DNA of 64,000 bases, taken from the IMG/VR virus record IMGVR_UViG_2913147268_000005. One strand, given 5' to 3'. Below, in pieces: positions 49,401-55,400 of this stretch; position 1 is the first letter of the stretch, and each line of letters starts with the position of its first letter. The DNA comes from a virus. Lineage: Duplodnaviria > Heunggongvirae > Uroviricota > Caudoviricetes. Position numbers: made by a program.

Positions 49401-52400
49401 GGACAAGAAACTTTCACCACCTCCCGAATTTTTTTCCATTCTTCCCAGTAAGACGGATACACACCTTTCGTACACTTTGCCCATACTGGCGGCTTGCCAT
49501 CCGGATACTGAACCTTGTTTGTAAAAACTTCGCCTTCAATAAATTTTTCCCCTCGGCAACAGGGGCACTGCTTTTTACTCGCTGCGCTGCGGGCATAATC
49601 CTCAAAAGCGTACGAAGCCATAATGCGCATCACTACCGGTTTTATTTCTGCCGGAAGTTTTCTCAACGCCGCCACACGATCGCACCGACTGAGTGCATAA
49701 TCTGCCAGTAATTCTGTTGCCCGCGCCCTGTCATTCATACTGATGCCCATTTTCCCCAGGAACGCAGAAAACCCCATCTCAGCCCGATTCTGTGTCATGC
49801 CCTGCGCGGCCATCACATCAGTGATACTCAGCGCATCTTTCGACGTTGAGGCCGATGCATCAGTCAGGCCGGGGGATTTTGGGGAGTAGTATTTCGGTAA
49901 ATCTTCCAGTTTCATTTTTTGACCTGCTCTTCATGCATTATGGGGTAAATCTTCACCCCCAGACGTCCACCAGATACTGGCTGACCACGAACGATATTGA
50001 TTTCATCAAACTGCTCATCGTCCATTAGCAACCCCGCATGCGTCAGCGCATCCAGCGGCGCTTTCAGAATATTGTCCAGATCACGGCGGCGCTTATCCGG
50101 TGGTTCTGCAATAATTTTTATTGCCAACCTTCCGGACAGGCTTAATTTCAGCCGCTGCTGGCGAACAATAAGCGCCACTGCCCGGCGATAACGCTCCCCG
50201 GCTTTTGATACAAAATATGTGCTGCCACGACGACGCCAGTAAGTGTTCACCGTTGGCGGGTAAGGCAAAACAAATTCTATGCGTTCAGTCATTTATGCTT
50301 TCCACTTCAGAACACCCGAATTTCTCGCGTGCATTAAAAAACGAATCAGCAACAACAGCTGGCTGCCGTGTTTTTCTTCAAAATCTTTTACCCCGGCGTG
50401 TAGTTCGCTATGGCATTTACGGCACAGCGGAATAACAAACAAATCATCAGCCTTTGTTCCCATCCCTCCCAGTCCATGACCAATGATGTGATGCGGATCA
50501 TCTGCCTGATTGCCACACGTCATGCATTTCTGCGTTTTTACCCAACGCGTGTATACAGGCATCTCTTCCCGTTGTGATTTCTGGCGCTGGAGATACTGAG
50601 CCGGTGACTCCGGATCAACGGCAATGCTGACCACCGTCTTTTCCTGTGGCGGGTTTTGCTGGTGGGCGTGAGGCAGCGGCGCAAGATTTTTTGTGCGCTG
50701 CTTCAGTATGCTGGTGGCGGTCTGCTCTCCCGGTACGATGTCGCTTTCACGGTACATTGAGCGGATTTTTTCCGCACGCAACCCCAGCGAACGACGTAAT
50801 ACCGCTTCCGGTAGCGCGTCCGCCACCTGATTGCGGACCGCCCACCAGGATAATTCAGCCAGCGATAATTCCCGTTCCTGCGAGCCATTCATTGCATGGC
50901 GTATGACGTCAATCATCCATGCAAACAGGTTTTGGTGAGCAAGTTGCCCGAGTGATTCGGAGGTCTGGTCGCGCAGCTGGTTGTCGCAGTGCCAGCACAA
51001 CACCATTGCGCCGGTACCATAACGGTGAATGACGGTTTCACTGTGGTGATAATCGCCGTGTGGCCACTGGCAGGATTTAACATGGCGCAGTAACCAGTCA
51101 GACAATGCGCCAGCGCCACCAGCAGCACGAATCACTCGTTCGTCGCTGAAAAATGGCAGTAATGATTTATCCTCCGCCAGCGGCTGGCGAACGGCAGGAA
51201 CGACCCCGGACGGCAGATTACGCATGCTTTTCGGTTCCGGCTCCACCAGTACCCGGGTATTGTGGAATACCGGCATGGATTCACGGCCCGGCTTAACGAT
51301 CACCAGCCCGAGTTCCGGTACCAGAACAGGTCGAAGTAATACCCGCACGTTACCTCCAGATGCGTTGCTGGAATGTGCGGGACGGACGCGGTGGGCGTTC
51401 AGAGTAAGGAAGCCTGACGGAGATTATCCAGTGACGATAATCGAGGCTGAGGGCTTTCTTAATCTCGTATCCGCGTCTGCGGTAGTTATGAATTAGCCAT
51501 TCGGCCTGTTCTTCAGTACATGGTGGGTGTTGGTACCAGTCGGTTTTAAATGCGTGTGAACGCCGCCCATGCCGGATGGCAAGGTCGGTATCAGAATTGT
51601 GAAATTTGGTTTTGTGCGCCATCTGTTTTCTCTGCTGGCGCAGCAGGTGTCAGGTGTTCAGGCTGACGTGCGAATTGTAAACCAGAATGCCAGAAAAAAA
51701 CAAAACCCGCCGAACCGGGTTAAGTGCGGGTGCGTTGAGGATGCCTGACACATCAGAGGTGGCGAGGGATTTCTCCCCCGCCGGGTCTCTTACTCCTCAG
51801 GTTCGTAAGCTGTGAAGACAGCGACCTCCGTCTGGCCGGTTCGGATTCGTACCTCGCAGAGGTCTTTCCTCGTTACCAGTGCCGTCACTATGACGGTTAA
51901 ACAGATGACGATCAGGGCGATTAACATCGCCTTTTGCTGCTTCATAGCCTGCTTCCCCTTGCCTTTCGGCACGTAAGAGGCTAACCTACATTTGTGAGAC
52001 ATAGATTGGGCCTCAGATTAATGTTAAGCGTCTTGCAGGACGCGAAATGTTAACTGGGGCTTTTCTCTATCTGCCTTTCAGTGTTCATGCCTGAGACAGA
52101 TAGCCTCAAGCACCCGCAGCCATTCTACTTAACTCACGTCACCTCGCCAATATGAAATCAATCAGAAAGGTGATCCATAAAATCACTCCTTCTCTTCTTT
52201 TCCGTAGTGGAGTTGGCCAATTTTGATAAGAGGGCGTCCCTGAGATTTGCGGTGTAGATTGGTATCGCGCAGAGAATACACACAGCCACAATATTCCTGC
52301 TGATAGAATTTTTCGCGCTTGCTGATTTCAATCATACGGGACGAGCCGCCCTGCTTGCGCCAGTTATAATCCCAGTACACCATACCCGGATAATGCGCAA

Positions 52401-55400
52401 CAGCTCGCCGCCCACACTCGTTAACCTGCTGCATATTTTTCCAGCGTGAAATGCCCAGTGAACTGCTGATCACACTGAAACCATTTTCAGCAGCGTACAA
52501 CGCTGTCCGCTCAAAACGCATGTCAAAACACATGGTACAACGGATCCCCCTCTCAGGCTCCCATTCCATTCCTTTGGCACGTTCAAACCAGTTGTCGGTG
52601 TCGTAATCAGCATCGATAAACGGCACGCCGTGTTGTTCAGCAAAGCGAATATTTTCATCCTTACGAATTAAATACTCTTTCTGAGGATGAATGTTCGGGT
52701 TGTAGAAAAAGATGGTGTAGTCGATTCCCGAGGCCTGAAGCGCCTCCATCACTTCACCGGAACATGGAGCACAGCAAGAGTGCAGTAGTAGTTTGTTTGC
52801 CCCGTTTGGGAGCTCCAATTTAGGCCGTTTGAAATCAGCAATAGTCATAAATATTTTTATTGGGGTCATGAAAATAGCACAGAGTGTAGCATCAGAGCAG
52901 GGCTATCGGGAATATATGTCTAAATCTGGTAATATCTGGTTTTGACGCAAAGCGGACAACCACGCTGGCTCTACCCTGCGCCATGAAAATGTCAATTCAC
53001 ATCTGAACTAATGCTCTTTAATCTAGTAACGTCTAAAATACCTAACATTTCCTTGATAAAATGCCAGTACACGCTGCATAGCTTCGCTCTTCCGGCACTC
53101 GCGACAGATTATATTCAGGCGCCTGTCGTAGCGGCGTATTTCGCCGTCTGGTAACGACCAGATAAGGTCCGGATCAACCACTGCAGGTTTCTTCACCTTT
53201 GCCCTTGAGAGTTTTTTGCGAGCATTTTGCCAGTCCTTACGCGCCTGTTCAGACGGGAATAACCCGTAACCAGAGTTGTATACATCGCCACTGGCAACCA
53301 GCTCTCTGGCGAGAACACTCATCAGATATCTTGTCGCACCTGTCTTGGCTTCCAGTTGCCGCAACGTCTCGCGACCGCTCAGACGTACAAGTTCAACAAC
53401 CTGCCCTTTAATTTTTTCCCGCTCTTCTTGTGTAAATACTTTTGCCATAAGCGCCTCCGGCAATCACTTTTCCGATACAACACGGCGGGAAGAATCAGTA
53501 ATCTGTCGAACAATATCCCGGTGCTTGTTCAGCTCCCGCAGCGCGGCGCAGACTCGCTCCCACTTCTGAACATCACTTTTCGCCCTGCGCAGCGCCAGGT
53601 TTGCCCTGCGAAGGGACGGAAAAATCAGCTCATCTGCTTGCGTTTCGGTAAACGATGGCAACGGCTGCACAATGTCCGCCACAGTTTCTGTTTTAATTTC
53701 TTCCTGTGTTGCGGCTTCCCGGACTGGTAACGCAGCACCTGCTGGCTGAGGAAAGGCCTTACCATCACTTTCCGTTACCAGCGCGGCTTTCGGCTCTGCT
53801 GGTAAATTATCGCCCGGCATGCAGTAACGAAATTTACCGTTCTGATTAACGCGTGCCAGCCGCCCCGTTGCGGTTACCACCGCCAGCGTGGAAGCAACCT
53901 TGCGAGTACTGACACCGAACTTACCCGCCAGTTCCTCACACGTTTTAGCCCCATCCTGACCGATAAACTCAATCATCATGTCTGCGGTAACTTTTTGTTC
54001 GACCTCCCCGGTCAGCATATCCTGTGCTTCAGATTTTACTGGCCGCTCTTCGGTTACCCGGGATTCACCTTCGCCAGCCAGAAACCAGGTGTGACCAGTT
54101 TTATCAACGACGCCTTTTCTTTTGAGTTCCCACAGCTCGTTGACAGCCTCTTCACGACTGATTCCAAGGCGAGCTGCCACCACATGTGAAGAGGCTTTTT
54201 TCAGTGCTTTCAGTGCGTCAGATACGGTTTCCATTAAAATTTCCTCCGGACAAAATTACTTCACAACCCTCATATTGCTGACATTTGGACGCCAGCTATC
54301 CCAGTTAAACGTCACCCATCGACCACCGTTCATGGTCATGCGGTCCATAATCCTCTCACCAAGAAGCGTACTCATTGCGGCATGATTCAGGTTTGTTAAC
54401 ATCCCGACACTGCACAGTGATGCTGTCCGGCGATCAATTATCTGGTGCAATACCACCTGCTCGTTTTTCGTCTCCCGCTGAACGCCTATTTCATCCAGGA
54501 CCAGCAAATCAACCCCGCAAAGCTCCTGTAAAAATTTTTCCCCGGATTTGCCGTTGTCGTAGCTGTCATGCAACACGCTCATGACGTCAGACACGGTGAC
54601 GATAATCACGCTGCGCCCCTTCACCATCAGCCGGTTGCCCATCGCCGCTGCAAGGTGATTTTTCCCGGTGCCGGTTTTACCGCTGAACACAAAATTCGTG
54701 CACCCGGTCATCAGTTCGTCAGCTATGGATTTGGCCTGGCTCAGCGCGTATTTTTGCCCGTCGTTCTGCACCTGATAATTTGCAAACGAGCATTTGCTGT
54801 GCAGAGGCTGGATGCCCGAACGATTCAGGATTTTTTCCACCCGCAACTGGCGATTCTGGCGGTTAATCTCCTCGCTGCGTTTTCGTCCTTCAGCAAGTTG
54901 CCATTCCCGCCACTCCTCCACCGTCCGGTACGGTGGAACCGACCCCTGTGGTGCAAGTCTGCGAATACGTTCAAGAACCCCAACTGCCGCAATGTTTTTC
55001 ATGACACGTCACCCCCTGAATCCCGGCGGTATTTCAGTGTCCGGTTCAGAAATGTGATTCACGCAACGCTGCGCAGGCGAACGCCCCAGGCGGATAACCA
55101 GTTCATCCCATTTTTCCCGGAGTTTTGCCGGACTCATGATGTTTTTTACCCAGAACGAATCCCGCTGGAGACGCCCAAACATTTCACAAATTTGTCTGTG
55201 AGTTCTGCCATCCAGCATCCGCATTGTGCGAACGTCATTGGCCCATGCTGTCCAGTTGGGTTCTTTCGGTCTAGTGATCTCGCCATCATAGCTGGCCGCC
55301 TGCTCGTAAAGACTCACGATTCGTCCCCAGATCCACTGTGCGCACACCAAATCTTCCTGACTTCCCCACTGGCGTTTTTTCGCACTGAACACAACCGCGT

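Follow-up and report, generated by a model that had tools for sequence, protein, structure and literature searches.

The window analysed here is a stretch of 64,000 nucleotides (nt) from a virus of the Caudoviricetes (IMG/VR virus record IMGVR_UViG_2913147268_000005). In the nin-like region of a lambdoid prophage within it, a gene for an epoxyqueuosine reductase of the QueH family lies next to a hok toxin gene. It is quite likely that these represent two independent morons placed side by side, one encoding an active, cobalamin-independent QueH and the other forming a complete type I hok/mok/sok locus. As judged from sequence comparison, QueH would most likely be a lysogenic-conversion gene, completing queuosine (Q) synthesis without cobalamin (vitamin B12). 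The window's list of open reading frames (ORFs) contains exactly two minus-strand ORFs within 51790-52869, at 52183-52869 and 51790-52002, which is where the earlier note on this DNA had located both genes. Since these match the Pfam families QueH (E 1.1e-65) and HOK_GEF (E 3e-23), neither is a chance ORF. On the minus strand the gene order is an O-like helix-turn-helix replication gene, a DnaC-like ATPase, DUF1627, DUF977 (Ren-like), QueH, hok, a 90-codon ORF (ORF90), DUF968, RusA, and the Q antiterminator. QueH and hok therefore have the replication genes on one side and the Q antiterminator on the other, a position equivalent to the nin region of lambdoid phages, as the same note had proposed.

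The last step of queuosine synthesis converts epoxyqueuosine (oQ) to queuosine at position 34 of tRNA-Asp, tRNA-Asn, tRNA-His, and tRNA-Tyr. Cobalamin is not made de novo by E. coli and must be imported. QueH reportedly has no B12 requirement, a property attributed to work by Zallot in 2017 and Li in 2021. In E. coli the last step is cobalamin-dependent and the enzyme is QueG, encoded by yjeS (PMC4646009; PMC11841063). QueH is presented in one report as a non-orthologous enzyme that replaces QueG (PMC5372724), and two others describe it as iron-dependent (PMC9508795; PMC13443448). The second of these also reports that Staphylococcus aureus has both putative enzymes, QueG using cobalamin and QueH using iron, with different expression patterns (PMC13443448). 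QueG (YjeS), which depends on cobalamin and a [4Fe-4S] cluster, and QueH are alike in performing the same final queuosine step (PMC5372724; PMC4646009), whereas they are unrelated in sequence and fold, only QueG needs B12, and QueG is a core gene while QueH is accessory.

The ORF at 52183-52869 (228 amino acids, aa) matches PF02677 (QueH/DUF208) with 221.5 bits (cutoff 23.5) over profile positions 1-174 of 175. This assignment agrees with the cysteine ligands, the fold predicted for the protein, and its close homologues, and the QueH/DUF208 call that had been made from the sequence alone is upheld. An NCBIfam search returned no QueH match, as NCBIfam holds no model for the family. When PDB sequences were searched with phmmer, the sole match was QueH of Thermotoga maritima (7LC5, E 8e-22). 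The window protein is 78-86% identical to proteins named QueH in Erwinia, Providencia, Proteus, Photorhabdus, Serratia, Rahnella, and others, with 80-86% for those of the first four genera, and the copies of Enterobacter, Kluyvera, and Scandinavium are 86-92% identical to it. The PHROGs entry for the family is phrog_3217, labelled 'unknown function'. The QueH gene and the elements associated with it are as follows.

52183-52848, minus strand: QueH coding sequence, 221 aa counted from M8; an in-frame upstream ATG at 52869 would give 228 aa.
52883-52891, minus strand: putative extended -10 element of QueH, TGcTACACT, a conserved motif with a predicted transcription start near 52876.
52176-52964, minus strand: QueH cassette, the block common to IncF plasmids and phage HannyBb (blastn).

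Seven cysteines are conserved in the QueH family, and all seven are present in the window protein: C32, C33, C36, C111, C114, C194, and C196 (numbered from M1). They were identified in an alignment of 85 size-filtered sequences drawn from the best 150 matches in a library of representatives at 50% identity, and all seven positions are invariant in 33 close homologues. The T. maritima equivalents by alignment are C9, C10, D13, C87, C90, C169, and C171. This set (CC..C / CxxC / CxC) would be expected to bind a [4Fe-4S] cluster and an adjacent iron. The position of C36, corresponding to T. maritima Asp13, is occupied by Cys in 70 of 75 family representatives including the window protein, which thereby belongs to the majority type. 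Structures of T. maritima D13N and C9S mutants are present in the PDB, indicating that these positions have been singled out for study. The T. maritima structural model of the extra iron site may accordingly not be representative of most of the family.

An AlphaFold2 model of QueH was built from an alignment of 33 sequences (predicted local distance difference test score, pLDDT, 74.8; predicted template-modelling score, pTM, 0.75). Its best Foldseek matches were five T. maritima QueH entries (7LC7, 7LC5, 9DCO, 9D86, and 9DEU), with a template-modelling score of 0.80 (target-normalised) and a probability of 1.00; the next matches, LarE and TtuA-type alpha-hydrolases, were much weaker. The predicted protein thus has, in the model, the adenine-nucleotide alpha-hydrolase-like fold of QueH. 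Compared to T. maritima QueH (7LC5/7LC7), the window protein shares the full-length profile, the predicted fold, the cysteine set, and presumably the oQ34 to Q34 reaction. It differs in having about 20 extra C-terminal residues and a Cys at the Asp13 position, and in its setting, being borne by prophages and plasmids in a species whose core genome already contains QueG.

The QueH start codon is probably M8 (52848), judging from the homologues: the M1 position is ATT in plasmid and Enterobacter copies while the M8 ATG is kept, making 52848 the likely start. RefSeq WP_000150294.1 likewise starts at M8 and has 221 aa. Upstream of this codon, a motif TGCTAC(A/C/T)(A/C)T is found at a fixed distance 5' of the M8 ATG although the flanks differ. 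It is carried by the window, HannyBb, Shigella and Escherichia albertii prophages, Klebsiella and Salmonella plasmids, and Enterobacter, Kluyvera, and Scandinavium loci. The motif occurs in the mobile copies and nearly all Enterobacter-group loci, with TGCTACAAT or TGCTACACT in most. It was unreported by the consensus promoter scan and is known from the comparison of these loci, which suggests that the TGcTACACT element is QueH's own promoter.

QueH is found in 995 of 5426 complete E. coli genomes, nearly always as a single chromosomal copy annotated 'epoxyqueuosine reductase QueH', and in 707 genomes it has at least 99% identity to the window gene. The QueH and hok block is present at 80% coverage or more in 741 genomes, and the QueH carriers listed include ST131 and O157:H7 strains. 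By comparison, queG is found in 5426 of 5426 genomes. The statement in the earlier note that E. coli normally uses QueG was therefore accurate, and the two genes coexist in all 995 QueH carriers. Among viral sequences, 191 IMG/VR contigs contain a QueH relative, and the best 80 of these 191 encode an identical protein. HannyBb is the only isolated phage with QueH, where it is labelled 'hypothetical protein'. A copy at approximately 84% nucleotide identity is carried by about 200 plasmids, mostly of Klebsiella and Escherichia. Since RefSeq and public E. coli annotations already give both QueH and HokD their correct names, the finding, although real, is an ordinary one; the novelty implied in the earlier note was overstated, as RefSeq gives both names in about a thousand genomes.

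The limits of the QueH cassette were found by blastn. The block shared with a Klebsiella IncFIB/FII plasmid spans 52176-52913 (83%), that shared with a Salmonella IncFII plasmid spans 52179-52944 (90%), and that shared with phage HannyBb spans 52177-52964 (93%). The cassette consists of the coding sequence, a few bases past the stop codon, and 45-95 nt upstream. In Salmonella pCFSAN024441_02 it adjoins the ferric-citrate transport genes fecC and fecE, and in Klebsiella p90CM2-172k it lies among fragments of TonB-family genes. These plasmid settings may link the iron-dependent QueH with iron-uptake cargo.

Selection on the mobile copies was estimated as the ratio of nonsynonymous to synonymous substitution rates (Nei-Gojobori dN/dS) between the window QueH and four others, giving 0.046 for HannyBb, 0.037 for a Shigella prophage, 0.039 for the Salmonella plasmid, and 0.027 for the Klebsiella plasmid. 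The copies compared differ at up to about 17% of nucleotides. Ratios of 0.027-0.046 indicate strong purifying selection rather than decay. In addition, a neighbourhood survey covered 83 QueH loci, taken from contigs sampled at one genome per species and from the earlier matches. Phage or hok neighbours were found at only three of them, all in Escherichia or Shigella. The remaining 80 lie outside a phage context, from which we conclude that the phage QueH derives from an ordinary chromosomal gene of Enterobacterales.

The proposed function follows the known chemistry of the family. QueH would be a cobalamin-independent tRNA epoxyqueuosine(34) reductase using a [4Fe-4S] cluster and an adjacent iron, and would have been captured from an Enterobacteriaceae source along with an extended -10 promoter of its own. 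This promoter would probably drive its expression in a lysogen, with read-through of the early-right operon doing so in lytic growth, a route that the shared orientation of QueH and that operon also makes possible. It would duplicate the reaction of the core, B12-dependent QueG, allowing lysogens to convert oQ to Q in tRNA-Asp, tRNA-Asn, tRNA-His, and tRNA-Tyr without cobalamin. Such a conversion would be of benefit because E. coli depends on imported cobalamin. The analysis shows family membership, intact ligand residues, purifying selection, and the limits of the cassette, and, in silico, the RNA elements of the neighbouring hok locus; enzyme activity in E. coli, use of the promoter, and the fitness benefit are the three parts of this account that we infer. 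A discrete QueH cassette between the replication genes and Q that is absent from many related phages is what would be expected of a moron, promoter activity being presumed. It resembles lambdoid morons and lysogenic-conversion genes, in which an accessory gene with its own (here putative) promoter is inserted between core phage modules. QueH also relates to queuosine chemistry, as do the 7-deazaguanine auxiliary metabolic genes of phages (queC/D/E, folE, and dpdA). The known phage genes of this kind modify phage DNA (PMC6884629). Unlike them, QueH belongs to the tRNA-specific last step and has no partner genes.

The second moron is the hok locus, whose features are listed below.

51790-51945, minus strand: hok coding sequence (51 aa), equal to K-12 HokD/RelF (Pfam HOK_GEF).
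51790-52002, minus strand: mok frame (70 aa), which extends hok in frame at the N-terminal end (ORF list; phrog_251 'MokW-like host killing', 113 bits).
51940-52115, minus strand: 5' leader of the hok mRNA, containing the Sok target and the region where translation of mok is initiated (Rfam RF01794 'sok').
52122-52150, minus strand: promoter-like site of the hok mRNA, TTGGCG-17 nt-TAGAAT, just 5' of the leader end at 52115 (consensus scan).
51995-52068, plus strand: candidate Sok antisense RNA, opposite the leader that Rfam matched (fold -29.6 kcal/mol, z = -5.15).
51728-51740, minus strand: fbi-like fold-back element predicted to pair with the hok mRNA 5' end at 52104-52115 (minimum-free-energy fold).
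51704-51721, minus strand: intrinsic terminator of the hok mRNA, a stem-loop followed by a T-run (terminator scan).

The 70-aa frame at 51790-52002 matches Pfam HOK_GEF with 81.6 bits, and its inner 51 codons (51790-51945) give a Hok that is identical at 51 of 51 residues to K-12 HokD (b1562). The HokD-like toxin named in the earlier note is confirmed by these two results; NCBIfam Hok matches fell below the curated cutoffs. RF01794 was matched on the hok-sense strand across the entire model (1-157 of 157) with 120.5 bits (gathering score 59, E 1.6e-27). In the predicted fold of the candidate Sok, a 5' tail that is single-stranded and complements the mok start region is followed by a long hairpin and a U-run. 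A promoter-like TTGCCT-17-TAACCT was read from the sequence at 51959-51987, unreported by the consensus promoter scan; we take it, by analogy, to correspond in position to the sok promoter of plasmid R1. In silico, the 419-nt hok transcript folds at -168.5 kcal/mol (z = -7.5, with none of 100 shuffled sequences as stable), and its nucleotides 1-12 pair with 51728-51740, a long-range tac-fbi pairing characteristic of hok mRNAs.

Toxin, mok frame, leader, candidate Sok, and fold-back are all found, and the predicted elements are consistent with a complete type I hok/mok/sok locus. Its stable, folded hok mRNA would be kept silent by the 5'-3' fold-back, while the unstable Sok antisense RNA would block translation of mok and hence of hok. 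Upon loss of the locus or shut-off of transcription, Hok would kill the cell, thereby stabilising the prophage and/or aborting infections. The locus resembles those of plasmid R1 and the E. coli chromosome in its Hok peptide, mok frame, Sok-target leader, antisense hairpin, fold-back, and terminator. It differs from that of R1 in lying in the nin-like region of a prophage instead of on a plasmid.

Hok is a type I toxin whose repressor is not RelB but the antisense Sok RNA, acting by way of the mok frame that overlaps hok. The earlier note had remarked on a Hok gene with no relBE partner nearby. The observation itself holds, since neither relB nor relE is present near hok in the region's ORF list and the relBE-hokD arrangement is not found. 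The implication of an orphan toxin does not, as the antidote of Hok is Sok RNA and the full leader is present. In the Qin prophage of K-12, the genes run relB-relE-hokD-rem-ydfU-ydfT. Around hok, K-12 and the window are homologous only over 51696-51959 (98.5% identity), a stretch that ends 14 nt upstream of the hok ATG, so the promoter of hok, its leader, the mok start, and sok are all missing from K-12, where relBE is found instead. The two loci are therefore alike in their identical Hok, their syntenic position upstream of the ydfU/DUF968 gene and Q, and the 98.5% identity of the 3' part. They differ in that nothing upstream of 51959 is shared, and the window has QueH in the slot and a complete hok locus. 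On this comparison of sequences, relBE-hokD of K-12 is a truncated or degenerate derivative, and the window locus is the complete form. The absence of relBE here is expected rather than anomalous, with QueH filling the slot of K-12 relBE. The hok/sok part of the finding matters mainly as a correction, the well-known K-12 relBE-hokD arrangement being the degenerate one. In the interval between hok and DUF968, the 90-aa ORF90 (51350-51622, minus strand) matches phrog_1212 with 124.8 bits, a family of unknown function, and has no Pfam match; its unannotated counterpart in K-12 is located between ydfU and rem.

We considered QueH and hok as a single obligatory unit and rejected the idea. The hok module (51696-52180) abuts the QueH cassette at 52176-52180 with a separate boundary and recurs in many phages that do not contain QueH, and the hok coding region is missing from about a quarter of the viral contigs with an identical QueH. 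Among the best 80 of the 191 viral contigs, those with an identical QueH, Hok was found downstream in 56 and at the same spacing in 52. A Hok match is missing in the other 24, some of which are too short to tell. Six full-length contigs without Hok were examined, and in all six the segment 52010-51722 is replaced by approximately 2.1 kb (for example L092:5845-7861) encoding a C5 cytosine methyltransferase (Pfam 184.6 bits) and a restriction enzyme of the NgoMIV family (422 bits). The hok promoter and leader are kept upstream of this replacement. The slot beside QueH looks like a swap site for addiction and defence cargo, occupied by hok/sok, relBE, or type II restriction-modification genes.

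An alternative is that QueH serves the phage itself, its expression, mainly by lytic read-through from the early-right promoter, completing Q34 of host tRNAs for the optimal decoding of late genes rich in NAU and NAC codons. The co-orientation of QueH with the early-right operon, between the replication genes and Q, would suit such a role, as would the carriage of QueH by the isolated phage HannyBb and the failure of a terminator scan to find a terminator upstream within the cassette. However, conjugative IncF plasmids, which have no lytic cycle, keep the same cassette and motif under purifying selection that is just as strong, and QueH is retained in a prophage riddled with insertion sequences (IS) that is probably defective. 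A lytic cycle also seems short for remodelling a stable tRNA pool, and the tRNAs encoded by the prophage of a related strain are for Arg and Ile, which are not Q substrates. Such a benefit to the phage is possible but disfavoured, and we regard it as unlikely.

Less probable still is the recruitment of QueH to another task, such as reducing an epoxide-bearing 7-deazaguanine in DNA or a part in defence or counter-defence. This would suit a hotspot for conflict cargo, whose neighbouring slot holds hok/sok here, the methyltransferase and NgoMIV-type enzyme in about a quarter of otherwise identical viral contigs, and relBE in K-12, and the PHROGs label 'unknown function' would leave room for it. 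Against this, the protein is 80-92% identical to non-phage Enterobacterales QueH with every conserved residue kept, showing no sign of neofunctionalisation, and neither tgt/dpdA, queC/D/E, nor other 7-deazaguanine genes were found in an annotated near-identical prophage. PADLOC gave no match for QueH, Hok, DUF977, or ORF90, and an Rfam scan of 44000-60000 detected no riboswitch or other RNA element near QueH.

A third alternative, with QueH as a passenger, neutral or in decay, and Hok as the orphan remnant of a relBE-hokD operon, could draw on the coverage of the reaction by QueG in every E. coli genome, on the truncated K-12 hokD behind relBE, and on the many chromosomal hok loci that are said, from the Gerdes laboratory, to be inactivated, yet it is highly doubtful, and the results on selection and on the RNA elements already speak against most of it: the QueH ORF is intact with a dN/dS of 0.02-0.05 across mobile copies, its protein is identical in the best 80 of 191 IMG/VR contigs, and hok keeps a full leader, mok, Sok hairpin, fold-back, and terminator beyond what K-12 hokD retains.

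Several points weigh against the interpretation of the pair as an active QueH moron beside a complete hok/mok/sok moron. The putative QueH promoter is a conserved motif only, with a weak -35 and no Shine-Dalgarno sequence before M8, and the terminator scan found no terminator between QueH and hok. The AlphaFold2 model is of moderate confidence by its pLDDT, and since T. maritima QueH, the only one studied structurally, has Asp where most have Cys, the ligand chemistry is extrapolated. IS elements are abundant in the prophage, which may be defective, so that lytic-phase expression of QueH may be irrelevant here. The searchable literature yielded no experiment on a prophage- or plasmid-borne QueH of E. 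coli or Klebsiella. Moreover, we know of no phenotype that separates oQ-tRNA from Q-tRNA, which makes the benefit of redundancy with QueG speculative.

The prophage context was also examined. Between the Q antiterminator and the lysis genes, approximately 14.6 kb at 33939-48558 is absent from the prophage of strain 4/1-1, which is otherwise 99.9% identical. This insertion is full of IS genes, which are listed below, and the prophage is probably defective.

37958-39558, minus strand: IS21 IstA/IstB.
39983-40489, minus strand, and 47885-48232, plus strand: IS66 TnpB.
42804-44000, plus strand: IS110 transposase.

PsiA belongs to a plasmid SOS-inhibition family, whose usual home is the leading region of conjugative plasmids. 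A PsiA gene (Pfam 133 bits) is found within this same insertion of the prophage, at 35723-36442 on the minus strand. Window positions 1-15301 are 100% identical to a P2-like prophage that, in reference genomes including that of strain 2/0, is about 0.5 Mb away from the QueH prophage, and none of the complete E. coli genomes in the collection searched matches the window end to end. The window comes from a rearranged genome or a mosaic of prophages (1-15301 versus 20988-64000).

At the other end of the window, an integrase gene (61942-62967, plus strand) adjoins tRNA-Ser(CGA) (63020-63109, minus strand), the one tRNA gene of the window, which is not a Q substrate. This tRNA gene is presumably the integration site, which would be serU as judged from mtfA among the features under partial matches elsewhere. 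In strain 4/1-1, a prophage with a near-identical early region is integrated beside ompW, and the same cargo region is thus paired with different integration modules. A DicF small RNA lies within 58543-58801 on the plus strand (Rfam 76.7 bits, full length) and is followed by a sub-threshold STnc100 match (38.7 bits, gathering score 47). The equivalent region of strain 4/1-1 carries dicB and ydfA/B/C, which makes the immunity-side region Qin-like. In the Rfam scan of 44000-60000 (E<=1), only the hok leader, DicF, and the sub-threshold STnc100 were found, and no B12, preQ1, or other riboswitch was detected near QueH.

What remains of interest is a B12-independent enzyme that is carried on prophages and plasmids within QueG-bearing species, is under strong selection, and has apparently not been studied. 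Tentatively, and with less confidence than for the pair of morons itself, QueH of prophages and plasmids may be a selected trait which frees Enterobacteriaceae that already have QueG, ST131 and O157:H7 strains included, from imported B12. It would then maintain Q-tRNA rather than oQ-tRNA in niches poor in B12, measurably affecting translation or fitness, and would be a mobile gene for tRNA modification from which the host benefits. If QueH is active, approximately one in five sequenced E. coli would finish queuosine without B12, while K-12 and most strains would not. Strains would then differ in a simple way in their tRNA epitranscriptome, owing to a gene carried by mobile elements, several plasmids of Klebsiella and other enterobacteria among them. 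The QueH status of a strain could then affect experiments that compare Q with oQ, and the gene may aid fitness in host niches poor in B12. Strains with and without it would also provide a natural system in which to ask whether oQ and Q differ functionally.

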